From IMG/VR virus record IMGVR_UViG_3300045988_093152, positions 1 to 62,487 of that record: DNA of 62,487 nt; one strand, written 5' to 3'. The translations under genes were made by a program, and so were the position numbers. Origin of the DNA: a virus. The notes under the pieces are model-generated. The model was given only the letters and a program-made list of their open reading frames with translations, had not been told where the DNA came from and did not search any database. Positions 208-62,395 of the stretch are shown here, one piece after another. How positions within the stretch are numbered: the first letter of the stretch is position 1; the number at the start of each line of letters is the position of its first letter.

Positions 208-237
208 CTTCCATAATAGAGATTGCTTTTTTTCGCG
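208..237 (-). promoter_or_regulatory. phage-specific promoter-like P-motif, copy 13
   Basis: Minus strand CGCGAAAAAAAGCAATCTCTATTATGGAAG (spacing +1). The real SD and ATG of the downstream gene lie about 30 nt further on. Confidence 0.5.
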
Positions 238-2410: not shown

Positions 2411-3118
2411 TCACTTCACCATACTTCCTTTCCGTGTCTGGTCATCCGCAGGCCAGTACGTGTAGATGTCATCGAACACCACCGGGATCTTCTTCTGAAG
2501 CTCCATCAGCAGCGGGCACATGAGCTCCCGCATCTGAGGATGGGCCGCCACAGGAGTACGCAGCTTGAAGATGTTGCGCCACTCACGGTAGTTGGCAGTC
2601 ACCACGATTTCGGTCTTCAGGCACAGCGGAAGTACACAACGGGCCTGTTCGGGACGCATACCGTTGGCAATCATAAGCTTGTAGTCCTTTTCGGCATAAG
2701 TCATGGCTTCAAGGAACGAACTCTTGATCGTAACCTCGCTATCGTTCAGTTCACAATACTGCTCGCCACGAATATAAGAAGGCCAGATAAACGTCAACTC
2801 TCCGCCAAACTTCTCCTTCGAGTAGTTGCAGTACCGGGTGCTCTCCTGCGCAAAGCTCGCAATACGGTGCCGTATCAGTTCATTGGCCACGCCACGATCA
2901 CAGGTGAACAGCACGGACAGCTGCGAATGCTCCAGCATAGCCTCATGCCCCTGCTTCACCAGAAAGCCCACCAGTTTCTTTGCCGACTCACCATCCGGCG
3001 TGATCTTGTCCTCGCTCTTGTAGCAGACCCGGGCCACCCGCTCGATCTGCTGGAGCTCCTTAATGCCTCCCTCAGAAATATCAGTGAGGATTTCGTACTT
3101 AGGTTCAACGATTTTCAT
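2411..3118 (-). CDS. thyX: flavin-dependent thymidylate synthase ThyX
   Basis: ThyX signature RHRIASFAQESTR (RHRxxSxxxxSxR), 235 aa, AAGGAG SD. Confidence 0.9.
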   Translation of the reverse strand: MKIVEPKYEILTDISEGGIKELQQIERVARVCYKSEDKITPDGESAKKLVGFLVKQGHEAMLEHSQLSVLFTCDRGVANELIRHRIASFAQESTRYCNYSKEKFGGELTFIWPSYIRGEQYCELNDSEVTIKSSFLEAMTYAEKDYKLMIANGMRPEQARCVLPLCLKTEIVVTANYREWRNIFKLRTPVAAHPQMRELMCPLLMELQKKIPVVFDDIYTYWPADDQTRKGSMVK

Positions 3119-5828: not shown

Positions 5829-5857
5829 CCTCCATAAAGGAGCCTGTTATTTTCGCG
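5829..5857 (-). promoter_or_regulatory. P-motif, copy 1
   Basis: Minus strand CGCGAAAATAACAGGCTCCTTTATGGAGG. Confidence 0.55.
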
Positions 5858-18783: not shown

Positions 18784-18812
18784 CCTCCATAAAGGAAGCT
18801 GAATTTTTCGCG
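18784..18812 (-). promoter_or_regulatory. P-motif, copy 2
   Basis: CGCGAAAAATTCAGCTTCCTTTATGGAGG. Confidence 0.55.
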
Positions 18813-18824
18813 CCTGGTCAAATA

Positions 18825-19610
18825 TCAATAGCCGCCCAGCCACTTCGGAGGCGTGTGATACTCCAGCGTCAGACAGGGCATTCCATCCTCGTCCAGCCGG
18901 GACGCATAGAAAATATCAACGTTAAGCCCCGAATCCGTGTCCCAGCCCAGCAGGTCACCGTTGACGCAGTGGTCGATGCCCAGATAGTCGAACAGATCAT
19001 TCTCGCTCACCCGGAAGTCACTGAGCAGCTGTTTGTTGACCCCATTGACGGCCTTTTCGATCATGGCCTTGGTCGTCCAGAAGTAGGTGTTGGTCAGGCT
19101 TTCCCAGCACTTCACCCGCTGGTCATAGGAAACATCGGTCGTGGCAAGGCCCTTGGCAGACTGGATGGTTGCCGGTTCGGGGCACTTGGCCATCTTTTCC
19201 AGCGCAATAGTCTCCCGGATCTCCTGTTCCTTCTCGGGGCCGATGGCCTCCAGCACCTTGTCCTGATAGGTCTTGAGCGCGCTCTCAGAAAGGGTGCACG
19301 CCGCGGCCAGTGCAGCATTCCGCCGCTCGTCCACATGGACTGCGCCAATGACACAGCCCGCAGACAGCACCATGCTCAGCGCAGTCGGCACATACACCGG
19401 GCCTGCCGTCTTGACAATGGTCTTCACGTCCAGCTTTTCCACGCCCAGCTCCTGCTTTTTCTCGTCCAGCAGGATCATAGCCTTAGGGGTCGCGGTCACA
19501 GCGAAATAGACCGCCGTAATGCTTCCCGTGATCGCCAGACCACCCAGGATCTTGGATGCGTTCTTGCCTGCGCTCCTGCGCACTGCCTTTGCAAATGTTT
19601 TCAGGTTCAT
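18825..19610 (-). CDS. two-TM protein, paralog B
   Basis: See 16707..17693. GDLLGWDTD C-terminal motif. Confidence 0.7.
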   Translation of the reverse strand: MNLKTFAKAVRRSAGKNASKILGGLAITGSITAVYFAVTATPKAMILLDEKKQELGVEKLDVKTIVKTAGPVYVPTALSMVLSAGCVIGAVHVDERRNAALAAACTLSESALKTYQDKVLEAIGPEKEQEIRETIALEKMAKCPEPATIQSAKGLATTDVSYDQRVKCWESLTNTYFWTTKAMIEKAVNGVNKQLLSDFRVSENDLFDYLGIDHCVNGDLLGWDTDSGLNVDIFYASRLDEDGMPCLTLEYHTPPKWLGGY

Positions 19611-19631
19611 GTTCGTACCTCCAAAAATTTA

Positions 19632-19666
19632 TAAAAAGAAAGAGCCTACGATTTCTCGTAAGCTCT
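19632..19666 (-). terminator. rho-independent terminator, conserved hairpin family (variant stem)
   Basis: AGAGCTTACG-AGAAAT-CGTAGGCTCT plus a T-run. Confidence 0.7.
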
Positions 19667-19672
19667 CGCCTT

Positions 19673-19897
19673 TCAGATATGTCCGTGCTGCTTCAAATTC
19701 TCGAAGCGAATTTCTGTTTCACGCTGATCATCGCGTTCCAGTTGGATCTGGTAACAGATATACTCGTACAGTCTGGTCGGCTGCTTCTTCAGATAGTGAT
19801 ACAGCCCCGTAAAGCCGTATCCTACTGAACGTGCAACTGCCTTCAGTACGCGTACCATTGCCTTGTCCATCTTTGCATAATAGTCGTGATCGTACAT
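19673..19897 (-). CDS. hypothetical protein
   Basis: ATG at 19897 in the context GGGGATTGATATTTATG. Confidence 0.5.
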   Translation of the reverse strand: MYDHDYYAKMDKAMVRVLKAVARSVGYGFTGLYHYLKKQPTRLYEYICYQIQLERDDQRETEIRFENLKQHGHI

Positions 19898-19934
19898 AAA
19901 TATCAATCCCCTTTGTTTGTCAGTTTGGATACCT

Positions 19935-19963
19935 CTTCCATAAGGGAGACTGTATTTTTCGCG
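19935..19963 (-). promoter_or_regulatory. P-motif, copy 3
   Basis: CGCGAAAAATACAGTCTCCCTTATGGAAG. Confidence 0.55.
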
Positions 19964-19964
19964 T

Positions 19965-20129
19965 TTACAGGTTCTTTTCCGCAAGCTGACGCTGAACTTC
20001 CTCCCGCACCATGTCCTGCATTTCCTCTTCGCTGCGCTGCTCCTCGATCAGGTCGTGGCCAAAGCTCAGGATTGCGCTTGCAGCCATCATTGCCACGGAT
20101 GCAACTTTCCACCAATTGATCTTCTTCAT
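19965..20129 (-). CDS. small membrane protein (54 aa, below the track cutoff)
   Basis: GGAGACTGATATTTTATG; MKKINWWKVASVAMMAASAILSFGHDLIEEQRSEEEM... Confidence 0.5.
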   Translation of the reverse strand: MKKINWWKVASVAMMAASAILSFGHDLIEEQRSEEEMQDMVREEVQRQLAEKNL

Positions 20130-20154
20130 AAAATATCAGTCTCCTTTTCAAAAT

Positions 20155-20964
20155 TCAAAACGGTTCCCGTCTGGTCGGGTCGTAATCCAGATACTCTTTG
20201 ATCGGCTCCTGGAATGCTGTCACATAGTACACTTCCAGTCCATCATCCGTTGTCTGCCGGGCATAGTTGAAGTCGATCCAGTAATATTCCCACTCGTTGC
20301 TCAGATACTCCGCGCACCAGCCCAGCATATCTCCTTCCGGTATAAAGTCCAGTCCGGGCAGGAAGGAGTAGAAGTCATTCAGCGAGACTTCTCCATTCAA
20401 CGCAAAGTTCCGGTTCACGTTGTAGAAGGCATCCATCAGCTCCGTTTCCGTTGCATGGAAATATCTTTTTGAGATAGGCTCGTAACAGAGCAGCTTTTCT
20501 TCGTCTGTGCCTGCCGGGGTGGGGGTCTCCAGAACATCCTGCGTGTCCTTGTAAATATCTTTTTCTTCTTCCACGCCGATCCGCTCTGCCACCTGCCTGC
20601 GATACTCCTGATAGGTCTTTCCCAGCGCCATATACGCCGCGGTCAGGCCTGCGATCTGCTTTTTGTTCAGCGCGTTGGAGCCCAGGATGCAGGCAATGGT
20701 ACCGCTGCCAAGAATCGCAGCCGGAACGTATGCTTTCCAGCACATCTGAACAATTTGTTTCTTTGTCGGAGGCTCTTCTGTCACTCCAAACTCGTTTTCG
20801 TTGAACTTTGTCAGCTCCTTGTCAACTTCAAGTATATGCTGCGCCTTCGTAGTCGCCCGCCCGGTCTCGATGGCCGTTGCCACCACGCCTACAGATGCCG
20901 CCACCGCCAGAATAGTCCCGCCGTGCTTGCGCAGGAATTTCGCGCATGTTTTCGTCAGTTTCAT
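20155..20964 (-). CDS. two-TM protein, paralog C
   Basis: See 16707..17693. GDMLGWCAEY motif. Confidence 0.7.
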   Translation of the reverse strand: MKLTKTCAKFLRKHGGTILAVAASVGVVATAIETGRATTKAQHILEVDKELTKFNENEFGVTEEPPTKKQIVQMCWKAYVPAAILGSGTIACILGSNALNKKQIAGLTAAYMALGKTYQEYRRQVAERIGVEEEKDIYKDTQDVLETPTPAGTDEEKLLCYEPISKRYFHATETELMDAFYNVNRNFALNGEVSLNDFYSFLPGLDFIPEGDMLGWCAEYLSNEWEYYWIDFNYARQTTDDGLEVYYVTAFQEPIKEYLDYDPTRREPF

Positions 20965-20990
20965 TGTTCAACCTCCCATCACAAAATGAT

Positions 20991-21191
20991 TTAGCCATAG
21001 AGAATCTCGTAAAGCCGATTGGATGCGCTCAGATAGTTTTCATAAATATCTGCGTCCGCACACATGCTCATGTAGTCCTCCGCGTTTTCCACCTTGGAAT
21101 AGACCTGCTCAAGGTTTTCTTTGAGCGCCTGAAGTTCGCTCTTCATTGCCGGGTCCGTGCAGCGCTGAACGATGTCATCCATTGTTTTCAT
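20991..21191 (-). CDS. hypothetical protein
   Basis: 66-aa ORF. Upstream context is TTCAAAATGGAGG-N9-ATG. Confidence 0.55.
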   Translation of the reverse strand: MKTMDDIVQRCTDPAMKSELQALKENLEQVYSKVENAEDYMSMCADADIYENYLSASNRLYEILYG

Positions 21192-21211
21192 GATGTTTAA
21201 CCTCCATTTTG

Positions 21212-21246
21212 AAAAAAGAAAGAGCCGCAGATTTCTCCACGGCTCT
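21212..21246 (-). terminator. rho-independent terminator, conserved hairpin family
   Basis: AGAGCCGTGG-AGAAAT-CTGCGGCTCT plus a T-run. Confidence 0.7.
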
Positions 21247-21267
21247 AGCTTTAATGATTAGCTCGTA

Positions 21268-21486
21268 TTAACGTTCCATAAAGTCCGTATCTACTAAATC
21301 ATATTCCACATCATGGTCGTTGGAATTGCCGATAAATATCGAAAACGCCTTATCAAGGTCGGTAAAGTCGCACACTGCAATTTCATTATTTTTGAATGCA
21401 GGTGAGCCAACCAGTGCCTCGCACATGCGATCACGAAATTTAGCCATTTCCTCAGGATTTTTGCATTTGATGTTCAAAACGATCAT
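21268..21486 (-). CDS. hypothetical protein
   Basis: ATG at 21486 after TTGGAGG. Confidence 0.55.
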   Translation of the reverse strand: MIVLNIKCKNPEEMAKFRDRMCEALVGSPAFKNNEIAVCDFTDLDKAFSIFIGNSNDHDVEYDLVDTDFMER

Positions 21487-21523
21487 AGTTTCGTACCTCC
21501 AAAATATAATTCTGAGACTGATC

Positions 21524-21552
21524 ATCTCATAAAGCACCATGAAAATTTCGCG
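21524..21552 (-). promoter_or_regulatory. P-motif, copy 11
   Basis: CGCGAAATTTTCATGGTGCTTTATGAGAT. Confidence 0.5.
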
Positions 21553-21777
21553 TCAGATCACATCAGCCTTCTTGAGAATATCCATCAGCTGCGCCTTGGT
21601 CATCTCTGCATCCACTACAAGATGGATTTTCAACTTCTGCTCTTTTTCGCTCCAGTTCGCCTGAACCTCGCCCAGCTGTACCTCTGTACCGGGTAACTGC
21701 TTTTTCAGTATCTTGTTGATGACCTGCGAGATGATGCGGCGCAGAAAACTCGACCGAATCAGCATAATGTCCTCCAT
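21553..21777 (-). CDS. hypothetical protein
   Basis: 74-aa ORF, TTGGAGG SD. Confidence 0.55.
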   Translation of the reverse strand: MEDIMLIRSSFLRRIISQVINKILKKQLPGTEVQLGEVQANWSEKEQKLKIHLVVDAEMTKAQLMDILKKADVI

Positions 21778-21806
21778 AATCGTTCAACCTCCAAAAATAA
21801 AAATGA

Positions 21807-21876
21807 AAAAGAGAATGGGCCTCGAACCCATAACCTCCACAATAAAGTGGCGCTCTACCATTTGAGCTATCTCCTC
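21807..21876 (-). tRNA. tRNA-like gene with canonical acceptor, D- and T-arms but a shortened, non-canonical anticodon arm (identity not assignable)
   Basis: GAGGAGA-TA-GCTC-AAATGGTA-GAGC-G-CCAC-TTTATT-GTGG-AGGTT-ATGGG-TTCGAGG-CCCAT-TCTCTTT. There are 20 nt where a normal tRNA has 22-23. Its 5' end lies inside P-motif 4 and a T-run follows. Confidence 0.55.
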
Positions 21877-21901
21877 CATAAGGGAACATGAATTTTTCGC
21901 G
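21873..21901 (-). promoter_or_regulatory. P-motif, copy 4 (drives the tRNA-like gene)
   Basis: CGCGAAAAATTCATGTTCCCTTATGGAGG. Confidence 0.55.
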
Positions 21902-21902
21902 T

Positions 21903-22127
21903 TTACTTGATTCTTTTGACCGTCACTGTATATTCAAGCTTCATAGGATTGCCGGAAGCATCTTTACAAGAGAAAACATTACCAGTAAAACTAAGCTGGG
22001 CAGTGGAATTTTTACACAGGATATTCATTACAGTTCTATCTTTAAGTACTGCAATTTTGAAAATATCTGCGAGTTTTTCAAAATCATTCATAATACGATT
22101 AGCCTCGAACATATTTGCATTTGACAT
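21903..22127 (-). CDS. hypothetical protein
   Basis: 74-aa ORF, GGGAGG SD. Confidence 0.55.
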   Translation of the reverse strand: MSNANMFEANRIMNDFEKLADIFKIAVLKDRTVMNILCKNSTAQLSFTGNVFSCKDASGNPMKLEYTVTVKRIK

Positions 22128-22154
22128 AGTTACTACCTCCCATATTGTGGTTTA

Positions 22155-22189
22155 CAAAAATAAAGAGCCTACGATTTCTCGTAAGCTCT
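22155..22189 (-). terminator. rho-independent terminator, conserved hairpin family (variant stem)
   Basis: AGAGCTTACG-AGAAAT-CGTAGGCTCT plus a T-run. Confidence 0.7.
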
Positions 22190-22199
22190 TCTCTTTGGC

Positions 22200-22481
22200 T
22201 TATCGCCAATCAGGATGTTTCTTCAATGTAGCTAAATATTTGCATTGTGCTTCCTTAAGATACAATTCTTTGTAATATGCTTTCCATTCCGTGTGAATAT
22301 CATCCGGAAATACAATATCGTTTTCTTCAATAACATCAAGCATAATCTCGATTTGCTTTTTCTTTTCATCTCGGATTTTTATTCCGTTATCAAACTTCTT
22401 TATTGTATCTCTTGATAGTCCAGTCATTTCAACCATATGACAAAGAAATATATTCCTTTGTTCTTTCAGCTCTTTCAGCAT
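22200..22481 (-). CDS. putative helix-turn-helix DNA-binding protein
   Basis: ATG at 22481 after GAGGTG. FLCHMVEMTGLSRDTIKKFDNG resembles an XRE-type HTH. Confidence 0.5.
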   Translation of the reverse strand: MLKELKEQRNIFLCHMVEMTGLSRDTIKKFDNGIKIRDEKKKQIEIMLDVIEENDIVFPDDIHTEWKAYYKELYLKEAQCKYLATLKKHPDWR

Positions 22482-22488
22482 ACATATC

Positions 22489-22517
22489 ACCTCATAAAGT
22501 AAGGAGAATTTTTCGCG
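22489..22517 (-). promoter_or_regulatory. P-motif, copy 5
   Basis: CGCGAAAAATTCTCCTTACTTTATGAGGT. Confidence 0.5.
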
Positions 22518-22524
22518 TTTGGGC

Positions 22525-22559
22525 AAAAAGAAAAGAGCCTACGATCTCTCGTAAGCTCT
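22525..22559 (-). terminator. rho-independent terminator, conserved hairpin family (variant)
   Basis: AGAGCTTACG-AGAGAT-CGTAGGCTCT plus a T-run. Confidence 0.7.
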
Positions 22560-22564
22560 CTTAC

Positions 22565-22804
22565 TCATTTAGTGAAAACCGTTATGATTTCTTTATCTTC
22601 GTCGAAATGCTTCATAAGTTCATTGAATTCTTTTTCGCTGCAATGCGCATCAAATATAAAACTTGTAACACCTGTGTGCTTATTTTCAAAGTAACCATAC
22701 CGCTCAATATAAGCGCCCAGTTGTTTTGCTTCTTCTTTGATTCGTTCGCCGCAGCATGCCCTGCAATGAACTCTGAAATACTTTTCAACGTTAATAAGTA
22801 CCAT
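22565..22804 (-). CDS. hypothetical CxxC protein
   Basis: 79-aa ORF. The GGAGG of P-motif 6 serves as its SD. Confidence 0.55.
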   Translation of the reverse strand: MVLINVEKYFRVHCRACCGERIKEEAKQLGAYIERYGYFENKHTGVTSFIFDAHCSEKEFNELMKHFDEDKEIITVFTK

Positions 22805-22958
22805 TCTTAATCACCTCCATAATATAAGCTGATTTTATCGCGTTTATTCTTTGTTTCTCTCTGGCTAACCAGGCAAGATAGTCATTGGTTTCGAGCTCCG
22901 CTGTATCATGTGCTTCATGTTTTTCAATTATTATAGTTCCATCATTATGCTCGTGCAT
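22791..22958 (-). CDS. hypothetical protein (55 aa, below the track cutoff)
   Basis: AAAGGAGAAATATT-ATG; MHEHNDGTIIIEKHEAHDTAELETNDYLAWLAREKQ.... Its 3' end spans P-motif 6. Confidence 0.4.
   Translation of the reverse strand: MHEHNDGTIIIEKHEAHDTAELETNDYLAWLAREKQRINAIKSAYIMEVIKNGTY
22814..22842 (-). promoter_or_regulatory. P-motif, copy 6
   Basis: CGCGATAAAATCAGCTTATATTATGGAGG. Confidence 0.5.
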
Positions 22959-22973
22959 AATATTTCTCCTTTG

Positions 22974-23336
22974 TCAGATCAAACTCCGATCAAACACGGT
23001 TTCCCAGCGTTCTTTCTTGAGGGGCTTCATGCGCAGTGCCCACATGATCTGCCGTACGGTCACAGTCGGGTACTCGCCCTTTGCGTTTTTCTTCTTGGCG
23101 TGACTATCAAAATATTGCCGGAACCCTTCATGCAAATAGATCTTGTCGGTCAGCCAGGGGTCAATGGCGCTCCAGTAAGTAGCCTTGGTTTTCTCGTTGT
23201 ACCGCTGCTGGATCACGCACAGGCCTTTCCCCTGTTCCCGGTAGAGCGTGCAGACACGGTACACCGGGTGATTGCACCGGTAAACGCTCCCGTAATAGCT
23301 CGTCCACTCTTTTGGCGGTATGTCGTGATATCTCAT
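22974..23336 (-). CDS. hypothetical protein (start uncertain; no SD before ATG 23336)
   Basis: ORF track 22974..23432. The region upstream of 23336 forms the terminator hairpin. Confidence 0.5.
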   Translation of the reverse strand: MRYHDIPPKEWTSYYGSVYRCNHPVYRVCTLYREQGKGLCVIQQRYNEKTKATYWSAIDPWLTDKIYLHEGFRQYFDSHAKKKNAKGEYPTVTVRQIMWALRMKPLKKERWETVFDRSLI

Positions 23337-23374
23337 AAAAAATAAAGAGAGCCCGCAGCTTTCGCCACGAACTC
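23337..23374 (-). terminator. rho-independent terminator (10-bp stem, CGAAAG loop variant)
   Basis: GAGTTCGTGG-CGAAAG-CTGCGGGCTC plus TCTTTATTTTTT. Confidence 0.55.
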
Positions 23375-23388
23375 CCTCGGTTCCTCCT

Positions 23389-23793
23389 TTACTTTCTATC
23401 CGTAAAGCCTCTCTTGATCTCATGGAGACCATCGTTCATTGCTCTGGAAAGCGGCGCTACACCGCCAGCCTCGCAGATCGACCAGTATACCGTCGTGCCA
23501 ATCGTTCCCAAAAACGTCAGGCAGCTGATGCCAAACTTCGCCCACTCAATGCGCCGTGCCTTCGCAGCCTTCTCCTGATCGTTGATGACCTCCTGGCCCT
23601 TCCGCCGTTCCTCATCCTCTTTCAGGTTCTGGTCGCTCTCCTGCGCCTCGCTCTTGATTTGCATCTCGTACAGCTGCAATGCCGCCTTCGCTGTCTTTTC
23701 GTAATCCTCCGTACCCGGTTCCAGATCCTTCAGCTTGGCGAGCGATTGCTTTGCCGCTTCCTTCAGCAATTCTTTGTTTTCATAGTTTTCCAT
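23389..23793 (-). CDS. coiled-coil protein with C-terminal TM segment
   Basis: ATG at 23793 within GGAGAAAATCAAAATGGAA. TM segment FGISCLTFLGTIGTTVYW. Confidence 0.55.
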   Translation of the reverse strand: MENYENKELLKEAAKQSLAKLKDLEPGTEDYEKTAKAALQLYEMQIKSEAQESDQNLKEDEERRKGQEVINDQEKAAKARRIEWAKFGISCLTFLGTIGTTVYWSICEAGGVAPLSRAMNDGLHEIKRGFTDRK

Positions 23794-23828
23794 TTTGATT
23801 TTCTCCTTTACAAAGTAATTTAGAGTTT

Positions 23829-23857
23829 CCTCCATTAAGCACCATGTTTTTCTCGCG
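23829..23857 (-). promoter_or_regulatory. P-motif, copy 7
   Basis: CGCGAGAAAAACATGGTGCTTAATGGAGG. Confidence 0.5.
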
Positions 23858-24089
23858 TCAGGTCCAGCTTGTGCACCCGCAGTATGATGTACTTGTCGCC
23901 TTCAAAATTCTTCACCTCCTCATCCAGGCTCAGGCTCAGGTAGGGCCAGTCCGGGTTATCTTCATCGCCGATCAACAGCTCGCCCACCTCGTAAATATCA
24001 CGGTAATGGAACCAGCGGTAGAGTGCCATCCCGAAAAGTAGGCCCAGAATGATAGCAGCGAATAGGACAGCGTAGTAGATGTACAGCAT
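23835..24089 (-). CDS. small membrane protein
   Basis: N-terminal TM segment YAVLFAAIILGLLFGMALY, AAGGAG SD. Confidence 0.55.
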   Translation of the reverse strand: MLYIYYAVLFAAIILGLLFGMALYRWFHYRDIYEVGELLIGDEDNPDWPYLSLSLDEEVKNFEGDKYIILRVHKLDLTREKHGA

Positions 24090-24143
24090 TTTGATTTTCT
24101 CCTTTTTAATAATGTAGTTGATAAAACGGTCTTCTGCGTGATG

Positions 24144-24177
24144 AAAAATAAAGAGCCTACGATTTCTCGTAAGCTCT
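24144..24177 (-). terminator. rho-independent terminator, conserved hairpin family (variant stem)
   Basis: AGAGCTTACG-AGAAAT-CGTAGGCTCT plus a T-run. Confidence 0.7.
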
Positions 24178-24184
24178 CTACACC

Positions 24185-24418
24185 TTAGATGTCGTTGCGA
24201 ATCAGGAATAAGTCACCACGGCTGCAAGTAGCCCGTACAATTCCATTCGCCCGAATCAACGCAATCGCATTGGCGTAAGCTCCGCGTGCTGTCTGAGCGC
24301 TCTTATACTCGCCTGTATCAATGTACATAACTTTCTGATTGCTCTCAATAAACACCCGGATCTTATCCATCGCGTTCACATAGCCTCGGTCGTAATTTAC
24401 CTTTACTCGTTTGCCCAT
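24185..24418 (-). CDS. hypothetical protein
   Basis: 77-aa ORF, AAAGGAG SD. Confidence 0.55.
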   Translation of the reverse strand: MGKRVKVNYDRGYVNAMDKIRVFIESNQKVMYIDTGEYKSAQTARGAYANAIALIRANGIVRATCSRGDLFLIRNDI

Positions 24419-24454
24419 AATTTCAATCTCCTTTATTCATATTCGGAAGACATC

Positions 24455-24483
24455 CTTCCGTAAAGCACAAAGAAAATTTCGCG
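24455..24483 (-). promoter_or_regulatory. P-motif, copy 8
   Basis: CGCGAAATTTTCTTTGTGCTTTACGGAAG. Confidence 0.45.
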
Positions 24484-24497
24484 TTGAATCGTAACAG

Positions 24498-24513
24498 TCT
24501 ATTCTAGAATAGA
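24498..24513. promoter_or_regulatory. perfect 16-bp palindrome, operator-like
   Basis: TCTATTCTAGAATAGA. A CTAGAATAGA half-site recurs at 25749..25758 over the int promoter. Confidence 0.4.
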
Positions 24514-24544
24514 AAAAGAAAAGAGCTCAAGTTTCCTTGAGCCC
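24514..24544 (-). terminator. rho-independent terminator
   Basis: GGGCTCAAG-GAAA-CTTGAGCTC plus TTTTCTTTTT. Confidence 0.65.
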
Positions 24545-24563
24545 GTTTTCCGGTCAGAATCCA

Positions 24564-24710
24564 TTAGCGGATACCACACCGAACATCGTTCAGCATGAGG
24601 AATTCTTCGCCCTCATTCCAACCCGCATACTTGTCGTTGGACGATTCGTTAAATGCGGTCATAATAGAGTTCATCATTTCCTCAAAACCTTCAACAATAT
24701 TCTTCAGCAT
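24564..24710 (-). CDS. hypothetical acidic protein (48 aa, below the track cutoff)
   Basis: TAGGAGGTATTTACT-ATG; MLKNIVEGFEEMMNSIMTAFNESSNDKYAGWNEGEEF... Confidence 0.45.
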   Translation of the reverse strand: MLKNIVEGFEEMMNSIMTAFNESSNDKYAGWNEGEEFLMLNDVRCGIR

Positions 24711-24738
24711 AGTAAATACCTCCTAAAATTTGTTATTT

Positions 24739-24768
24739 CTTTCCATAATAGAAGGTGTATTTTTTCGC
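24739..24768 (-). promoter_or_regulatory. P-motif, copy 9
   Basis: CGCGAAAAAATACACCTTCTATTATGGAAA (spacing +1). Confidence 0.5.
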
Positions 24769-24772
24769 GCCG

Positions 24773-24925
24773 GAAAATAAAAAAGAAGAATGCTTGAGTT
24801 TTCAATCCCAAGTCATTGGATGAGTACCGTTTATTTTATGGAACGTTTCATTCCGTACTCGCATCGATGCCTATTTAAGTTGTCACAACTACCAATTATT
24901 CATTGGCTGACCAACACCCTTTATT
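24773..24925 (-). ncRNA. candidate non-coding RNA (P-motif-driven unit with no credible ORF)
   Basis: About 150 nt between P-motif 10 and a T-run. Only ORFs of 20 codons or fewer, none with an SD. Several local hairpins (CCAAT/ATTGG, GTTG/CAAC, GCATCGATGC, GGAA/TTCC). Confidence 0.35.
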
Positions 24926-24954
24926 CTTCCATAAAGGACCATGTATTTTTCGCG
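24926..24954 (-). promoter_or_regulatory. P-motif, copy 10
   Basis: CGCGAAAAATACATGGTCCTTTATGGAAG. Confidence 0.55.
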
Positions 24955-25365
24955 TCATCCACGCTCAATACTCAATGTCCAGAAGAATTTGCGGTATTGC
25001 TCATAATAACTTTCTCGGCAGCAGGGGCAGCCATGAATTCGCAGCACATCATACGGAACACATTCCGTCGCTCCTTTTAATACATAGGGTGCGATTGCCG
25101 GAGAAATATCTTTCAAGCAGTGTTCTATAAGGCTAATCCGCTTGCTGAAGAATGCCCTGGCAATGGCGGTCTGTTCTGTGGGGTTCGATTCACGGCTTCC
25201 TTTGACAGTATACGTCCGAAGTTCTTCTGGTTTTGCTTTCCAGGCATCCAGCATGACCAAGGCATCTTTCCATTCAGGATACTGCAAGCAGAAATGTTTA
25301 AGCTCATAGTATCGGTGCTTTGAAATATAATACGGATTCTTTTCAGATAGTTCAACGTGTGCCAT
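24955..25365 (-). CDS. putative ArpU/RinA/sigma-region-4-like transcription regulator
   Basis: ATG at 25365 after GGAGGGG. YYELKHFCLQYPEWK...PTEQTAIARAF...CCRESYYEQYRKFFWTLS resembles small phage late-activator/sigma-like proteins (from memory). Confidence 0.45.
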   Translation of the reverse strand: MAHVELSEKNPYYISKHRYYELKHFCLQYPEWKDALVMLDAWKAKPEELRTYTVKGSRESNPTEQTAIARAFFSKRISLIEHCLKDISPAIAPYVLKGATECVPYDVLRIHGCPCCRESYYEQYRKFFWTLSIERG

Positions 25366-25609
25366 CTTTACCCCTCCACAAAAATCCAGTTTGCTCATAG
25401 AGCGCTTTCGGTGAGATGTAAAAATTGATACGTCCGAACTTGGAGTTCATTTCTTTCAAATCTGTGATTTTCTTACCGTCTCTGGTAGCTGTTCCGATAG
25501 GCAGCCATCCAGAAATAATCCCCGCTCGCACCCACGATGGGTCACGTCCGTATACTTTTGCGGCAACTCGTACAGGTACTGATCCTGTTGGAAAAATAAG
25601 GTCATTCAT
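25352..25609 (-). CDS. small DNA-binding protein (excisionase/MerR-like HTH), tentative
   Basis: 85-aa ORF, TAGGAGG SD, divergent from int. Confidence 0.45.
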   Translation of the reverse strand: MNDLIFPTGSVPVRVAAKVYGRDPSWVRAGIISGWLPIGTATRDGKKITDLKEMNSKFGRINFYISPKALYEQTGFLWRGKDGTR

Positions 25610-25786: not shown

Positions 25787-27007
25787 GTGCTTATAACCTG
25801 TCCAGAGTGTGAATTGCAAATTTCTGATAAGGCACTTGTATGCCCTCATTGCGGTTTTCCACTCAAGAAGAATGCTCAAGTGTATCCTAGAAAAGCAAAT
25901 AAACGTCGTAGGCTGCCAAATGGATTCGGACAGATTTCAGAAATCAAGGGGCGCAATCTACGAAAGCCGTTCAGAGTTTTAGTAACCGTAGACAAAGGAT
26001 TAGATGGGAAACCAATCTGTAAGCCGCTTCAGCCACAGTCTTATTTTGAAACCTACAATGATGCATATTTAGCATTAGTTGAATACAACAAGAATCCATA
26101 TTCCATCGAGAAAAATATTACCATGGATGAATTGTATCAGGCATGGCTGAAGGAATACAGGACGCATGTTGGAGAGAAGATGATAGAAAAGACTGAGTGT
26201 TGCTGGCGGTATGTTCGCAAAATTCACAATATGAAATTACAGCAAGTTCGTATTCCACAACTCAAGCTCGCACTCGACGAGGCAACAACCTATAAAAGTG
26301 GCAACGAAGTAGAACTTCCTCGTTCAGCTAAAGGCAGAATCAAAAGCCTGTTCAATCTCATGTTTGACTATGCAGTAGAGAACGAGCTTGTTCCGCAAAA
26401 TTATGCAAGGTCTTTTGCTCTTTCCAGATCAGATCAAGAAGAAACAGCTAGAGTGGACAAAAGTCACATCCTATATTCAGACGAAGAGGTTGAACTGATT
26501 TGGGGCGCTCTCCCGGTCTATCCATATCTTGATATTACTTTAATTCAATTTTATTCTGGTTGGCGGCCCAATGAACTTTTGAGCATGAAACTAGAAGATG
26601 TTGATTTAGAGAACAAAACATTTCATGGGGGCTCCAAAACTGTCGCAGGTAAAAATCGTATTGTGCCAATTCATTCCAAAATATTCCATTTTGTCGAACA
26701 GCACTATAATGAAGCTGTTGCCGCAGGGAGCGAATATGTATTTCAATCAGATACCCAACCTGGTAAGGCATATACATACGATCGGTATTATGTTCGACTT
26801 ATAGAAGCACGCGATGCCTTGGGGCTAGATAAAAGTCATCGCCCCCATGATGGTCGTGTTCAGTTCGCAACCATGGCAAAGAAAGCTAAAATGGATCAAT
26901 ATGCACTAAAGAAAATTCTCGGTCACTATATCGACGACGTGACCGAGAAGTATTATATAAAACCTGGGATGGACTGGCTCCGAAACGAAATCGAAAAGAT
27001 CAAATGA
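25787..27007 (+). CDS. int: tyrosine recombinase (integrase) with N-terminal zinc ribbon
   Basis: GTG start after AAAGGAGG. CPEC...CPHCG. Catalytic-region motifs SGWRPNELLSM, HRPHDGRVQF, LGHYIDDVTEKYY. Confidence 0.9.
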   Translation: MLITCPECELQISDKALVCPHCGFPLKKNAQVYPRKANKRRRLPNGFGQISEIKGRNLRKPFRVLVTVDKGLDGKPICKPLQPQSYFETYNDAYLALVEYNKNPYSIEKNITMDELYQAWLKEYRTHVGEKMIEKTECCWRYVRKIHNMKLQQVRIPQLKLALDEATTYKSGNEVELPRSAKGRIKSLFNLMFDYAVENELVPQNYARSFALSRSDQEETARVDKSHILYSDEEVELIWGALPVYPYLDITLIQFYSGWRPNELLSMKLEDVDLENKTFHGGSKTVAGKNRIVPIHSKIFHFVEQHYNEAVAAGSEYVFQSDTQPGKAYTYDRYYVRLIEARDALGLDKSHRPHDGRVQFATMAKKAKMDQYALKKILGHYIDDVTEKYYIKPGMDWLRNEIEKIK

Positions 27008-57918: not shown

Positions 57919-58331
57919 TGCAATAACCTCGTTTCACATTCTTATTTTGCTTTTGCAAGGGTTCATGGGAGTCGCAGTAGTACCAGTTAAGCCTGTCTCA
58001 TTTGAAAGGAGAAGAAAAAGCAGATCATGCCCAATGGAGGTTGAACATCACGAAAGCCCTGAACCCAAACATATAGGAGGATACTACTCCCATGAGCCCT
58101 TGCAAAAACCGCCGAAGTCCCGGTCTACACCCCAGAACCTCGGCAATTTCCCATATGACTGTAAATCTTAACACCTGCTGTGGATACAGGCATCGAGAGT
58201 TTACACAAATATAATCGGCAGCTTTCACTGTCGGAGCCTTAAAGCCCAAATATCAATTTTCCCTCCGGGGAAATATCACAGACCGGCGCGATTTGAGAGG
58301 GGGTGCCGATTTTGAGACCCCTCCCTATGGT
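57919..58331. other. long non-coding region upstream of the packaging genes (candidate cos/pac or late control region)
   Basis: No SD-preceded ORF. G/C-rich hairpin GAGGGG...CCCCTC near 58290..58325. Confidence 0.3.
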
Positions 58332-58629: not shown

Positions 58630-61401
58630 TTACTTATTGAGTGCACTATAAACAGTAGATTCAGGAATGCCACAAGCCTTTGCGATTTCGGCATAAGAAT
58701 AACCGCTTCGCAGCATTGCACTTGCTTTGGATATCTTTGCAGAAGTCATAACAGTTGCATTCTTTGGCATTGCACGCTTCACAATTTCATCAGAATCAGA
58801 CGAATTAAGGAATTTCGTCAGCATGTTGTCTGAAATTGCACCAGCTTGAACAGCTTCCCATTCCTTATCCGTGAAGGTGACCTTGGATCTGCGTCCGCTT
58901 GCACCAACTGAATCACGAGCACGCTGCATTTCGACAGAAGAGATTTTCTTAATCTCTTTTTTATCTTCTGTAATGTTGGGGTTCAAACCTTGCTCTTGAA
59001 TCTTTGCCTTAATATTAGCATTAGCAATTAGCATCGCCTTGCGTTCTTTGGGTTTATTGGCGATCATATTTGCATACTTAGCTTTCAGCGAAGCTACTTC
59101 AGGGGCATACTTTTTAGCAGCTTCAGCACTGTATTCGAGTCCTTTCATATTAACAGCTTCTTTTCGAGCTTGAGCGGCCATGGCCTTCAGCTTATTAGAG
59201 AAGTCCGCATATAGGTTCTCTTGAACAGTGCCAGAAGACAGAGTTCGAGCATCTTTCGTTTCGGAAATCAGGCTGACAGTATCCTCCGCTAGACGCTTCT
59301 TGCCGCTTTTGGGGTCAGTGAATGTCCGTCCGCTCTCCTTGTAAATATACTCACCGGTCTCCTTGTCTATGCGGACACTGCCACGACGCTCCGGCACTCG
59401 TACTGTCTGCTTACGCCGGGACAGCAGCGTGGATGCACCACCATACTTAGTGTTTCCTTCTTCGTCAACACGAATCTGCCACTTCTGCTTCAGCTCGGGG
59501 ATGCCATTCTCGCGCTCAGAACGCTTATAGTCCAGCTTATGCTTTTCTGCATCGATAACGACCATAGAGTGCTTAACCGCACGTGCAAGCTCGTCCTCAT
59601 CGGCACCTCGCAATGTCATATCAGTGATGAGGTTGGAGATCACGCCCATTTCGCGCTGCTTCTCCTCTTTCTTCATCAGCCTGACATTGTTCGGATTGCC
59701 TTCAGGAACTGCATAAGCAGTCTTAGGATCGAATTCTTCGAGTGCTTTCAATGCACGGGTGGACTTGATGTTGACCTTGTCGGTAACAGGAATCGCCATA
59801 ACCGTGTCGCCATCGAAGTCTGCGCCCGAAAGCCGCTCTGCAACCTTTGCATTGATGCCGATTGCATCCTGAATTGCACCGAGATTCCGCTTGCCGCTGA
59901 CGTTCTTGTTGTTGACGGTCACGATAGGAATCTCGAAGGTGCCTGCATGAGGATAGCGAATCAGTGCAAGTCTGGTGCCATTCTCATAAGTAGGACAATA
60001 AGCCTCTGTCTCCTTGATCTTATTGATCGGCAGGATAACCTTCGTGGACTGGCCCGGGAATGCAGATGCCTTCAGGGTCATGGACGTTCCTTCAACCGTA
60101 TCAGCAAAATCGTTGAGCAGCTTCTTTTTGACCGTAGGACTATCGTACCGCATGATCTCATCATATTGGGCTTTGTAATCCGCAACAGTAAGGTTAAGCT
60201 GGTTCTCGATCAGCTTTTTAGGCTGCTTGGAAAGGAACTGAGAAGAGACGTTCCGAGACATCGTATCCCAGTCGCCTTCCTCCTTCAGCTTATTGATCGG
60301 CGAGAGGTGCTCTTTGCCATCGTCACCGATGTACATGCTCTGGCCGTTAGCCTTGATAGCTGCGCCAAACGGGTTGTCAGGATCAGCTTTTGCTTCCTTA
60401 AGGACCTTCATCTTGGGCGTGCCGGAAGGCTTGTTGGTGTTAAACATAACGTCCACACCATCCGGCAGGTCATCAGAATAGACTGCCATACCTTTCAGAT
60501 AATGGTCTCCGTCAACGAGGATACGAACCTGCGCATAATGGCTCTTGCCCAGATCGAGGTCAGGAACACCACGGCGAATCTCCATAACGCCGTCTTTATC
60601 CAGGCCGCCTTCGTCGCCATAGCGAATCGCAACACGATTGGAATCCAGACTTGCAGGACGCTGAAGCTTCGTAAAGGTCTCGCCGCCGTCATCAGAATGG
60701 TAATCGCCCAGAGAATCGATCTGATCCTGATGCTGGTAAGCATACTTCTGGTCAAACTCAGGCTTCGCAAGAACTGTAATGTTCGTTTGCTGGCGAGGAT
60801 TGGTAGGCTGCTTGATGCCCACACCGTAGCGCTTATAGCCATATTCGGCCTCTAACTTGTATGCGGCCTCATCCAACTCCGTTTGAGTTATTCCTAAAAC
60901 AGAATTTGCTCCTTCAGAAATGTCAATTATACCTTTTTTATCGACTTCAGCCTTCAATGTATTTGCGATATTTACAGCACGTTGTTCTTTTTTACTAATG
61001 TTGCCATTATATTTAGAGCGAACACTAGATTCGCTCATCCCTAGTTTATCACCAATTTCTTTCCATCCAAGACCATCTTCTTTTAGAGCACGAATCTTGT
61101 CGTACTCCAATGCTTGGCGTTCATGTGTAGCCGTCCGCTGAGCTACTCTAAACTCTGTAAGCCCCATTTTATATTCATCGGGAAGAGAATTATTGATAGT
61201 TTCCAGAATATCTTTTTCAGAGAGGCCTTTCTTTTTTAATTCTTTCACCCGGGACAAAAAATCACCAGAATGCTGATACGGATTATCACCAGAGCCCCAG
61301 GGATAACGCCCGGAATGGCGTTTCGTACCGTAATGCTCCAGAATATTACTTTCAGAGGTAATGCCAAAATAAGAACGAAGGTCTTTTTCAATCGGGTTCA
61401 T
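58630..61401 (-). CDS. YonO / QDE-1-like two-barrel (double-psi beta-barrel) RNA polymerase homolog with terminal HTH-like regions
   Basis: HYLKGMAVY...VMFNTNK. LALIRYPHAGTFEI, then about 39 aa, then LSGADFDGDTVMAIPV (compare beta-prime NADFDGDQMAVH). HSMVVIDAEKHKLDY. C-terminal GYSYAEIAKACGIPESTVYSAL. Confidence 0.65.
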   Translation of the reverse strand: MNPIEKDLRSYFGITSESNILEHYGTKRHSGRYPWGSGDNPYQHSGDFLSRVKELKKKGLSEKDILETINNSLPDEYKMGLTEFRVAQRTATHERQALEYDKIRALKEDGLGWKEIGDKLGMSESSVRSKYNGNISKKEQRAVNIANTLKAEVDKKGIIDISEGANSVLGITQTELDEAAYKLEAEYGYKRYGVGIKQPTNPRQQTNITVLAKPEFDQKYAYQHQDQIDSLGDYHSDDGGETFTKLQRPASLDSNRVAIRYGDEGGLDKDGVMEIRRGVPDLDLGKSHYAQVRILVDGDHYLKGMAVYSDDLPDGVDVMFNTNKPSGTPKMKVLKEAKADPDNPFGAAIKANGQSMYIGDDGKEHLSPINKLKEEGDWDTMSRNVSSQFLSKQPKKLIENQLNLTVADYKAQYDEIMRYDSPTVKKKLLNDFADTVEGTSMTLKASAFPGQSTKVILPINKIKETEAYCPTYENGTRLALIRYPHAGTFEIPIVTVNNKNVSGKRNLGAIQDAIGINAKVAERLSGADFDGDTVMAIPVTDKVNIKSTRALKALEEFDPKTAYAVPEGNPNNVRLMKKEEKQREMGVISNLITDMTLRGADEDELARAVKHSMVVIDAEKHKLDYKRSERENGIPELKQKWQIRVDEEGNTKYGGASTLLSRRKQTVRVPERRGSVRIDKETGEYIYKESGRTFTDPKSGKKRLAEDTVSLISETKDARTLSSGTVQENLYADFSNKLKAMAAQARKEAVNMKGLEYSAEAAKKYAPEVASLKAKYANMIANKPKERKAMLIANANIKAKIQEQGLNPNITEDKKEIKKISSVEMQRARDSVGASGRRSKVTFTDKEWEAVQAGAISDNMLTKFLNSSDSDEIVKRAMPKNATVMTSAKISKASAMLRSGYSYAEIAKACGIPESTVYSALNK

Positions 61402-62220: not shown

Positions 62221-62273
62221 GATACAACCTCCAAAAATAAGAGGAATAGCACGTCTTGAGACACATTCTATTC

Positions 62274-62302
62274 CTCCCATAAAAGGGGATGTTTTTCTCG
62301 CG
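62274..62302 (-). promoter_or_regulatory. P-motif, copy 12 (heads the nuclease / RNA-polymerase-like operon)
   Basis: CGCGAGAAAAACATCCCCTTTTATGGGAG. The real SD and ATG lie about 45 nt downstream. Confidence 0.55.
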
Positions 62303-62361: not shown

Positions 62362-62395
62362 AAAGCCCCTGCGTTTTTCGCGCAAGGGCTTTTAA
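62362..62395 (-). terminator. rho-independent terminator
   Basis: AAAAGCCCTTGCG-CGAAAAA-CGCAGGGGCTTTTT. Confidence 0.7.

Follow-up and report, generated by a model that had tools for sequence, protein, structure and literature searches.

The 62,487-nucleotide (nt) stretch of viral DNA considered here, IMG/VR record IMGVR_UViG_3300045988_093152 at its full length (hereafter, the window), carries 13 copies of a 29-nt motif, all on the minus strand, which is the coding strand for nearly the whole window. The motif, its strand specificity, the genomic contexts in which it occurs and its in-register conservation across bacterial phyla, in phages that share a candidate single-chain RNA polymerase, are matters of observation. 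Promoter activity, the start site and the polymerase as the reader of the motif are what we infer from these sequences. In our estimate, there is about an even chance that the motif is a promoter of a phage-specific class and is read by the phage's own polymerase, a protein of 923 amino acids (aa). The initial annotation had posited a promoter class distinct from that of sigma-70 and heading an early/middle regulon, and this proposal is backed by comparison: the same architecture and register recur in every polymerase-encoding genome examined, and the structural/lysis module contains no copy.

Reading of the strand between positions 18700 and 25000, together with a loose search for CGCGA-type cores, recovered all 13 copies at the positions first assigned to them, with the first C of CGCG at 62302, 24954, 24769, 24483, 23857, 22842, 22517, 21901, 21552, 19963, 18812, 5857 and 237. 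The two copies that had been described as longer by one nucleotide are 24769 and 237, each with one additional A in the A-run. The consensus itself had to be corrected: as originally written, C(C/T)TTTATGGAGG, it contained one T too many and gave 0 matches at up to three mismatches, whereas the corrected form, CGCGAAAAAT-N-CA-N5-CYTTATGGAGG, gave six, against 0.00 in 100 shuffles. The alignment of the 13 copies reads RR-A-CGCGAAAAAT-W-CA-N5-C-Y-TTATGGAGG, and the hexamer preceding the terminal purine-rich block is CTTTAT, CCTTAT, CTTAAT or CTTTAC in 10 of them and TATTAT in the other three (24769, 22842 and 237). A weight matrix was built from the 11 ungapped copies, which score 36–48 bits; given that these scores are obtained by construction, the informative part is that nothing else scores, all other positions on both strands falling below 12 bits. 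Scanning of the whole window with this matrix found zero copies in the structural/lysis module.

The contexts of the copies also agree with what had been described, namely, that each follows a terminator or a gene end. Four copies (62302, 24769, 24483 and 22517) are preceded by intrinsic terminators at a distance of 14–60 nt and are followed by genes, so that transcription must restart there; the rest abut or overlap the stop codon of the upstream open reading frame (ORF). The early region is enriched in intrinsic terminators (19 vs. 7.5 ± 2.6 expected), most of them encoded on the minus strand. Sigma-70-type pairs, that is, -35/-10-like hexamers 16–18 nt apart, which the motif had been said to lack, are not enriched in the regions scanned (15 vs. 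10.9 ± 3.4 expected in the early region, and 6 vs. 6.6 and 13 vs. 10.8 elsewhere), and the +1 copy 237 is the single motif copy that overlaps such a pair.

The motif is not confined to the window. Faecalibacterium phage FP_oengus carries 13–15 copies, all on the gene strand, one of which fronts a tRNA-like gene and another one the operon for an endonuclease, an exonuclease and the polymerase. When the matrix was applied, as the initial annotation had recommended, to 80 related viral contigs (1.43 Mb) encoding polymerases 86–99% identical to that of the window, the hits numbered 133, every one on the gene strand and none on the opposite one. Five more genomes or contigs were searched for over-represented words without prior assumptions, and each contains a repeated gene-strand motif in its small-gene region. 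With the G that follows TTTAT, motif position 25, numbered +1 and a slash marking the boundary between -1 and +1, these motifs are CACAtGTTTTACA-N4-CTATAGT/AGAAAGAAGG in Lactococcus phage 1706 (11–13 copies), TCGCAAGtTTTaCA-N4-tTATAGT/GAGACCCCTAC in Streptomyces phage Scap1 (6 copies), TTCGCA-N3-ATTACAcGCCcTATAAT/GAGACCCC in Gordonia phage Secretariat (9–10 copies), TCGCGtaAAtTACA-N-GGGCTATAAT/GA in Arthrobacter phage Mudcat (7 copies) and TTTCGCrgAwTCwGCA-N5-TATAAT/GAGACC in the oral contig89 (3 copies). The window and the six further genomes share a common register, with C, R, C and R at -24, -23, -22 and -21, T or A at -15, C at -13, A at -12, a T/A-rich hexamer from -6 to -1 that ends in T, and a purine at +1. 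A degenerate cross-family pattern derived from this register has gene-strand/other-strand counts of 7/0 in the window, 10/0 in FP_oengus, 7/0 in 1706, 4/0 in Scap1, 6/1 in Mudcat, 9/0 in Secretariat and 3/0 in contig89, compared to about 0.1 in shuffles.

Seven of the seven polymerase-encoding genomes or contigs examined carry the motif in the same register, their hosts being Faecalibacterium, Lactococcus, Streptomyces, Gordonia, Arthrobacter and an oral host; conversely, the polymerase is encoded in every complete genome that carries the motif. A copy is located upstream of the operon that ends in the polymerase gene in the window, FP_oengus, Mudcat, Secretariat and 1706. The motif is present in 1706, Scap1, Mudcat and Secretariat, which are lytic and for which the annotations list no integrase. 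The scaffold MT835485 contains about 16 copies along with a relative of the 136-aa protein discussed below, and was considered as a test case for the motif without the polymerase; it is not decisive, given that the scaffold is a truncated prophage beside bacterial genes, from which the polymerase region, not found on it, may merely be missing.

In the adopted numbering, the window motif consists of C, G, C and G at -24 to -21, an A-rich stretch, T at -15, N, C at -13 and A at -12, N5, the hexamer CTTTAT with C at -6 and T at -1, and GGAGG from +1. The RNA 5' end probably lies at or just before the G after TTTAT, as suggested by the sequence features that are in register with it. For copies 22842, 22517 and 5857, the ATG lies 6–9 nt beyond the GGAGG or GAGGTG at +1 to +6 and has no other Shine-Dalgarno sequence (SD); in seven copies of phage 1706, the SD occupies positions +3 to +10. 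The earlier statement that the GGAGG often doubles as the SD applies to three or four copies of the window. The tRNA-like gene starts at +2 in the window according to Rfam, and at +3 in FP_oengus and +6 in MT835485 when registered manually against the D-arm. A terminal hairpin beginning at +1 can be formed in 6 of the 13 window copies (62302, 24483, 23857, 21552, 18812 and 237) and in 8 of the 14 copies of FP_oengus, in each case where the real SD is further downstream; the stems are unlike one another (GGAAG/CTTCC, GGAG/CTCC, GAGAT/GTCTC, GGAA/TTCC, GAGACG/CGTCT). In an offset scan of 59 distinct instances, a terminal hairpin was found at offset 0 in 37 and at -1 in 26, compared to 1–12 at offsets -2 to -5 and +1 to +2; a second peak at -8/-9 corresponds to pairing of the pyrimidine run at positions 16–19 with GGAG, which excludes the +1 hairpin. 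Taken together, the use of the SD, the 5' end of the tRNA-like gene, the +1 hairpins and the fold of an ORF-less unit described below imply that the GGAGG is transcribed, with a start no further downstream than +2, which would place the T/A-rich hexamer at about -6 to -1. Two other ways of viewing the element were discarded. The internal ATG (motif positions 23–25) is in frame with the downstream gene in only two copies, the others reaching a stop within 3–13 codons, and is therefore unlikely to act as a leaderless start; a conserved RNA hairpin spanning the entire motif was not found either, pairing being only partial (positions 16–19 with 25–29) and restricted to roughly half of the copies.

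The proposed reader, a candidate single-chain RNA polymerase (58630..61401, minus strand; phrog_4291), has full-length homologues with 36–45% identity in 250 cultured-phage records (Arthrobacter, 95; Gordonia, 55; Streptomyces, 54; Lactococcus, 13; others). The loop SGADFDGD, containing D528, F529, D530, G531 and D532 of the metal-binding DxDGD motif, is invariant across six lineages. Pfam family Sigma70_r4_2 matches the protein with E = 3.5e-10 in two stretches, with helix-turn-helix (HTH) domains near residues 100–135 and 890–923, and the HTH cores (E-I/V-A ... G ... S-T-V/L) are conserved in the six lineages aligned. The match to the Pfam family RdRP (PF05183) is at E = 0.02 and 14 bits, below the cut-off of 23.8 bits, and no sequence match was obtained in PDB. 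The polymerase 'supercluster', the DxDGD motif and the HTH domains at both ends have already been noted in a preprint that also reported an HHpred probability of 95.7% to RdRP-type two-barrel polymerases and about 10 genes common to the whole supercluster, among which the polymerase is the sole one with DNA-binding domains (10.1101/842583). In our comparison, likewise, it is the only transcription-related protein common to all examined motif phages; in Scap1, each HTH or sigma Pfam family was matched by 1 of the 33 non-structural proteins. Upstream of the first HTH, residues 21–38 form an invariant segment, L-x-HYG-xx-R-x-SGRYPWGSG, in phages of Faecalibacterium, Lactococcus, Streptomyces, Arthrobacter and Gordonia; this segment could be a packaging or partner-binding signal.

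The initial annotation left the choice between two readers, the polymerase and host RNA polymerase redirected by a 136-aa regulator. The first of these candidates fared better: we favour the polymerase because it is the only shared transcription-related protein and contains two sigma-region-4-like HTH domains, whereas homologues of the 136-aa protein were not detected in the four lytic lineages carrying the motif. Accordingly, we rank the phage polymerase first, host polymerase with the 136-aa factor second and host sigma-A alone third. If the polymerase is the reader, its N- and C-terminal sigma-region-4-like HTH domains would bind the two upstream blocks, CGCG and T-N-CA, and the enzyme would melt the T/A-rich hexamer and initiate at the G. 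Every transcript would then open with GGAGG, which would serve as the ribosome-binding site when an ATG is within 6–9 nt and would be folded into a 5'-terminal hairpin where the real ribosome site is further downstream. The 13 promoters would serve the small early genes, the tRNA-like gene, a small unit that is non-coding, the endonuclease–exonuclease–polymerase operon and, within the replication module, two blocks of genes, but not the structural and lysis genes. A compact enzyme that has its specificity modules built in would be in keeping with the two HTH domains and with two upstream blocks that lie nearer the start than those of bacterial promoters. We advance more tentatively, with a probability somewhat short of even, the broader proposition that this is the first promoter consensus for a family of single-chain two-barrel polymerases, with specificity built in through two fused sigma-region-4-like HTH domains reading CGCR at -24 and T-N-CA at -13. 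Apart from the original papers on 1706 and ReqiPepy6, which our literature search did not cover, no publication was found with these motif strings in a phage context or with a promoter for this polymerase; the element has, in part, been described before under different readings.

Several considerations weigh against the polymerase as the reader. Its own operon stands behind a copy of the motif, so that a polymerase-only model needs another source of the first molecules; delivery with the virion, read-through or weak host initiation at copies of the TATTAT/TATAAT type are candidates. Three copies in the window have TATTAT, and the hexamers of the actinophages and of 1706 are perfect or near-perfect versions of TATAAT/TATAGT. 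The YonO polymerase of SPbeta transcribes late genes (PMC5467207), and the late module of the window is devoid of the motif and of any recognisable promoter of its own. One may speculate that this module is reached by read-through from the 62302 promoter across a cos-like gap, which would fit the processivity of YonO, reported to be high. The motif-bearing phages have many other genes in common, and co-inheritance on such a shared backbone alone does not single out the polymerase. The start site was deduced from the positions of the SD, the tRNA-like gene and the hairpins, and the competing in-motif hairpin (positions 16–19 with 25–29) is possible in about half of the copies. Finally, the 136-aa protein is weakly sigma-like by predicted fold, and in the window, FP_oengus and MT835485 the first motif copy comes directly after its gene.

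The latter protein is at the centre of the strongest alternative, in which host core RNA polymerase, redirected by the 136-aa protein as a small sigma/ArpU/RinA-type factor, reads the motif. We consider this unlikely. Under such a cascade, host sigma-A would give rise to the 136-aa factor, which would activate the 13 motif promoters including that of the polymerase operon, and the phage polymerase would then transcribe the late genes; the bootstrapping problem would be removed, in agreement with SPbeta, where YonO is limited to the late operon, and the two-block layout of the motif with fixed spacing resembles the -35/-10 design. The gene (24955..25365, minus strand; phrog_11237, function unassigned) is the second one in the only rightward operon without a motif, and its stop codon abuts the first motif copy, as is also the case for its relatives in FP_oengus (gp03, 1872–2285) and MT835485 (50960–51355, minus strand; 41% identity). 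In these three lineages, with identities of 41–48%, the distance from the stop codon to the first motif copy is 0–10 nt, which suggests that the protein is functionally linked to the regulon, whichever factor reads the motif. The AlphaFold2 model of this all-helical protein (predicted local distance difference test score of 83) consists of two helical bundles and a disordered linker and, in BFVD, resembles models of a phage 'transcriptional activator', sigma-70 region 4, extracytoplasmic function (ECF) sigma factors and DUF1492, with template modelling scores of 0.5–0.6 and E-values of 0.01–0.5; no PDB fold match had an E-value below 1. The label 'ArpU-like', under which the protein had been introduced, finds no support in profile searches: neither Pfam nor NCBIfam yielded a match at E up to 0.1 and phrog_11237 is the sole PHROG match, so that none of these resources supports a sigma or ArpU affiliation. 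The family comprises more than 4000 database proteins and has no Pfam domain. Searches with the family profile at maximum hidden Markov model sensitivity detected no homologue in 1706, Scap1, Mudcat or Secretariat, despite the same promoter architecture in these phages, whereas MT835477 encodes a 31% identical homologue and has no motif. Furthermore, a sigma-70-family start 6–8 nt after TTATGG would leave the GGAGG unavailable as the SD, cut into the 5' end of the tRNA-like gene and split the +1 hairpins.

Similar objections apply to the possibility that the motif is an ordinary host sigma-A promoter in an unusually conserved context, with the hexamer as the -10 element, a reading that appears improbable to us. 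It would require no special enzyme early in infection, and TATAAT/TATAGT is indeed invariant in the actinophage and 1706 versions, TATTAT is found in three window copies, one of which (237) passes a sigma-70 pattern scan, and the motif of cluster DJ phages has been published as a sigma-70 -10 element (PMC9671010, PMC10868162). However, 10 of the 13 window copies and nearly all copies of FP_oengus have no A at the position equivalent to -11 (T or C in the window), where it is essential; no -35 hexamer is found at 16–18 nt, the conserved upstream block being just 14 nt from the hexamer; and sigma-70-type pairs are not enriched. The CGCR and T-N-CA blocks are not sigma-A elements and yet are retained across host phyla. 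In sigma-70-family holoenzyme promoters, the -10 element occupies about -12 to -7, with the essential A at -11, whereas the positions of the SD, the tRNA-like gene and the hairpins would put the start right after the hexamer. With the hexamer probably at -6 to -1, lacking that A, and with the 14-nt spacing between the blocks, host sigma-A fits poorly, although the TATAAT/TATAGT of the relatives and the three TATTAT copies of the window give it some scope. A sigma-54 promoter, in which GG at -24 and GC at -12 are invariantly spaced, was rejected as well: TCGCA ... TTACA looks similar to TGGCA ... TTGCA, but its two blocks are nearer each other by about 2 nt, and Actinobacteria, the phages of which carry the motif, are not known to have sigma-54.

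The motif might, alternatively, act at another level, as an RNA processing or translation signal, as a repressor 'stoperator' or as a recombination boundary for the shuffling of early cassettes; these options jointly seem to us the least probable. T4 RegB cleaves at GGAG, a sequence contained within the motif, and many of the copies come directly after the stop codon of the preceding ORF, with no terminator in between. Intergenic repeats in one orientation also resemble the stoperators of L5 and the start-associated sequences (SAS) of cluster K mycobacteriophages, both of which are present in many asymmetric copies of one orientation in short intergenic gaps, the SAS including the ribosome-binding site. 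Against this, the copies behind strong terminators need re-initiation; the most conserved block, CGCGAAAAAT, lies upstream of the likely RNA 5' end and in no conserved RNA structure; and a translation signal would be pointless ahead of the tRNA-like gene and the ORF-less unit. Moreover, the stoperators bind a repressor and the SAS are associated with translation in temperate mycobacteriophages, whereas the window motif also occurs in strictly lytic relatives without an immunity repressor, after terminators and before non-coding genes; an L5-type stoperator is dismissed, given the same element in lytic 1706, Scap1, Mudcat and Secretariat, none with an annotated integrase. As for recombination, a preprint on cluster AU took the homologous 32-bp repeat as a recombination boundary (10.1101/2020.01.10.891226), and the early region is indeed mosaic between the window and FP_oengus (68% covered, 75% identity), but recombination between repeats would be a by-product and leaves the register conserved across phyla unexplained.

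The published descriptions closest to our motif come from actinophages. Cluster DJ Gordonia phages Vardy (PMC9671010; reported to be lytic, an integrase not having been detected) and Conley (PMC10868162) have a 43–50-bp intergenic motif 'containing a TATAAT -10 sigma-70 promoter', and cluster AU Arthrobacter phages have a 32-bp repeat flanking early genes (10.1101/2020.01.10.891226). Both are very probably homologous to the window motif: like the latter, they are present in multiple gene-strand copies in the central small-gene region of genomes encoding the same polymerase, and the DJ-type element in Secretariat is in the same register (TTCGCA-N3-ATTACA-N5-TATAAT/GAGACC). These reports each concern a single genome or cluster and tie the element neither to the polymerase nor to conservation beyond the cluster. 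The Faecalibacterium version has CTTTAT in place of TATAAT and a start region fused to GGAGG.

In kind, the closest characterised system is that of Thermus phage P23-45, whose single-subunit two-barrel polymerases, gp96 (virion) and gp64 (non-virion), have their own promoter motifs (PMC10770324). As proposed for the window, a conserved motif unrelated to host promoters lies right upstream of many early starts there, and the gene for one enzyme is under the promoter of the other. However, the P23-45 starts have been mapped by ONT-cappable-seq and the structures solved; the P23-45 enzymes have no detectable sequence relation to the 923-aa protein, no HTH fusion has been reported for them and their motif sequences are different. 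YonO of SPbeta is a single-chain polymerase of about 100 kDa, the promoter sequence of which is stated to be still unknown, and the paper mentions no HTH domains (PMC5467207). Like the candidate window polymerase, it is distantly related to multisubunit enzymes and is encoded by a temperate phage of Firmicutes, but it transcribes one long late operon from a single start, whereas in the window it is the early/middle units that begin with the motif, the late module having no copy.

The promoters of T7, phiKZ and AR9 have a similar geometry: conservation extends to the start site and beyond it, melting involves an A/T-rich element at about -6 to -1, initiation is at a purine, and the bases that confer specificity are about 8–17 nt upstream. 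T7 has TATA/GGGAGA where the window motif has TTTAT/GGAGG. The T7 enzyme is unrelated, however, those of phiKZ and AR9 are multisubunit, and the window motif reaches further upstream, to -24, an extent consistent with an additional HTH contact.

Phage two-barrel polymerases have been regarded as potential relics, or else as minimal forms, of the cellular RNA polymerase. Should the HTH-flanked enzyme read the motif, a promoter consensus of 25–30 bp would become available along with its natural variants from hosts of 34–61% GC, and would offer a simple model with sigma-like domains fused to the catalytic chain. The result would be a compact, sigma-free and possibly rifampicin-insensitive transcription system that is intact across two bacterial phyla, in a family spanning about 250 cultured phages of Actinobacteria and Firmicutes and thousands of metagenomic copies. 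Lactococcus phage 1706 and the Gordonia, Arthrobacter and Streptomyces SEA-PHAGES isolates would be tractable systems, and the pair could provide a compact orthogonal promoter and polymerase for Gram-positive synthetic biology. It would also account for the early-gene regulation of FP_oengus-like phages, which have been detected in as many as 40% of the human gut viromes sampled (PMC5883640). If host polymerase with the 136-aa factor reads the motif instead, the 13 copies would delimit the regulon controlled by small sigma-like phage factors of a novel family, which counts more than 4000 members.

Among the individual copies, the one heading the endonuclease–exonuclease–RNA polymerase operon, CGCGAGAAAAACATCCCCTTTTATGGGAGG (62274..62302, minus strand, as are all copies), follows a terminator at 62393–62361, and it has orthologues in those of the related viral contigs that extend over this site. 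The leader of this operon contains a 40-nt hairpin (62239..62278, minus strand) that starts at the G after TTTTAT, folds at -18.2 kcal/mol and is followed by a U-run, the SD GGAGG and the ATG at 62220. Across 10 variants, all 15 base pairs are kept, with 15 one-sided structure-preserving cells, 1 broken and 0 double compensatory, so that the support for the hairpin is weak. The hairpin and the U-run, located ahead of the SD and among the first 50 nt of the leader, together resemble an intrinsic terminator and have orthologues in contigs L019, L026, L068, L071, L074, L078, L082 and L083 and in FP_oengus after copy 27684; the structure could attenuate host-polymerase transcripts or stabilise the 5' end.

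The first copy of the small-gene region (24926..24954), which abuts the stop codon of the 136-aa gene, heads a unit of about 150 nt (24780..24930, minus strand) that extends to the second copy of this region and ends in a terminator. As originally stated, no ORF follows this copy: no minus-strand ORF of at least 30 aa starts there, and the unit is a candidate small RNA. Its first 8 nt, GGAAGAAU, counted from motif position 25, pair with AUUCUUCU just ahead of the terminal U-run, and the minimum free energy is -36.9 kcal/mol (z = -2.48 vs. shuffled controls). The unit is poorly kept in FP_oengus, the motif being near-invariant while the flanks fall to about 50% identity, and in MT835485 just 66 nt separate the copies corresponding to those that bound it.

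The next copy, a +1 variant with TATTAT (24740..24769), follows the terminator at 24812–24793 and precedes the SD AGGAGG and the ATG at 24710. Copy 24455..24483 follows the terminator at 24544–24523 and has the 5' hairpin GGAAG/CTTCC from position 25; copy 23829..23857 overlaps the final codons of the ORF at 23835–24089, also has a hairpin from position 25, and the gene after it likely starts at ATG 23793. In copy 22814..22842, with TATTAT, the GGAGG is the sole SD for ATG 22804, and in copy 22489..22517, located after the terminator at 22562–22531, GAGGTG is the SD for ATG 22481.

Copy 21873..21901 directly abuts the tRNA-like gene (21807..21876, minus strand), as had been noted, the 5' end of which coincides with motif position 26, that is, +2 if the G at position 25 is +1. 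The gene matches Rfam RF00005 (48.6 bits, E = 3e-8), whereas ARAGORN reports 'tRNA-???' with anticodon (ta), no anticodon being assigned; manual reading suggests a 4-bp anticodon stem and a 6-nt loop (TTTATT in the window, TTGATT in FP_oengus). The motif is followed by a tRNA-like gene also in FP_oengus (at about 2936–3005; contig L001 in our set) and MT835485 (just downstream of copy 45690), and in phage 1706 with a spacer of about 30 nt. Both the odd loop and the location right behind a motif copy are kept in three lineages.

Copy 21524..21552 abuts the stop of the ORF at 21553–21777 and has the hairpin GAGAT/GTCTC from position 25, and copy 19935..19963 abuts the stop of the ORF at 19965–20129. 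Copy 18784..18812 comes after gene 18825–19610, the counterpart of FP_oengus genes annotated as DUF6353 (a label taken from the FP_oengus annotation and the Scap1 scan), and has the hairpin GGAG/CTCC from position 25, with the real SD and ATG about 50 nt downstream. The remaining two copies belong to the replication module: at 5829..5857, within the part devoted to replication and nucleotide metabolism, GGAGG is the SD for an ATG about 9 nt downstream, and the +1 variant at 208..237, with TATTAT, has the hairpin GGAA/TTCC from position 25.

The window comes from a relative of FP_oengus and is an inverted and circularly permuted version with respect to the record of that phage, to which its early region shows 75% nucleotide identity over 68% covered, in a mosaic fashion. 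In the order of the minus strand, the integrase (25787–27007, itself on the plus strand) is followed by an 85-aa gene, the 136-aa gene, the small-gene region with ten motif copies and the replication module, which includes the DNA polymerase (10899–14903) and motif copies 5857 and 237. The 85-aa gene (25352..25609, minus strand; phrog_6058) opens the rightward operon, has no motif upstream and is presumably driven by host RNA polymerase; by eye, its product looks excisionase- or Cro-like. Across the window ends, motif copy 62302 leads to the endonuclease, the exonuclease, the 923-aa polymerase (58630–61401) and a small conserved gene, and after a non-coding gap of about 400 nt come the structural and lysis genes. 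This cos-like gap (57920–58330, minus strand), the position of which matches that of the genome ends (cos) of lytic relatives, contains no motif copy, and no sigma-70-like promoter for the late genes was found in it; it holds the hairpin TTTCCCCGGAGGGAAA between two copies of the octamer TGATATTT.

This octamer is a further strand-biased repeat, with 33 occurrences on the gene strand vs. 1 on the other strand, 54 times the compositional expectation; example sites, all on the minus strand, are 20138, 19905, 17701, 14563, 13512, 12784, 12507, 12150, 10901, 10259, 8382, 58278, 58255, 27511, 27477 and 27390. Copies are located in SD–ATG spacers and, in mixed frames, within ORFs; the cos-like gap contains two and the gap by the integrase three. 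Their density is high in the early/replication half and low in the structural one. The related word GATATT[TC] is found 70 times on the gene strand of the window vs. 6 times on the other. The octamer is similarly skewed in FP_oengus (36 vs. 2), as is ATATT[TC] in Secretariat (95 vs. 1) and Scap1 (24 vs. 0), and no such skew was seen in Mudcat and 1706. Candidate roles include those of a primase site, a signal akin to Chi, a pause or processivity signal for a polymerase and a minimal promoter.

Terminators are reused as well. One family, GAGAGCTTACGAGAAATCGTAGGCTCTT, has four near-identical members (24181–24148, 22562–22531, 22191–22162 and 19667–19640) and another, GAGAGCCGTGGAGAAATCTGCGGCTCTT, has three (21246–21221, 18390–18363 and 5541–5514), all on the minus strand. 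Together with the motif copies, the candidate promoters, these reused terminators give the early region the appearance of a string of cassettes with standard ends, and several of them precede genes without a motif, which implies read-through. Finally, a translation-initiation region, AAAGGAGAAAATCAAAATG, is repeated at 24100, 23800 and other minus-strand gene starts, and TCAAAATG occurs 24 times on the gene strand vs. 0 on the other strand, indicating duplicated or standardised ribosome sites among the small early genes.

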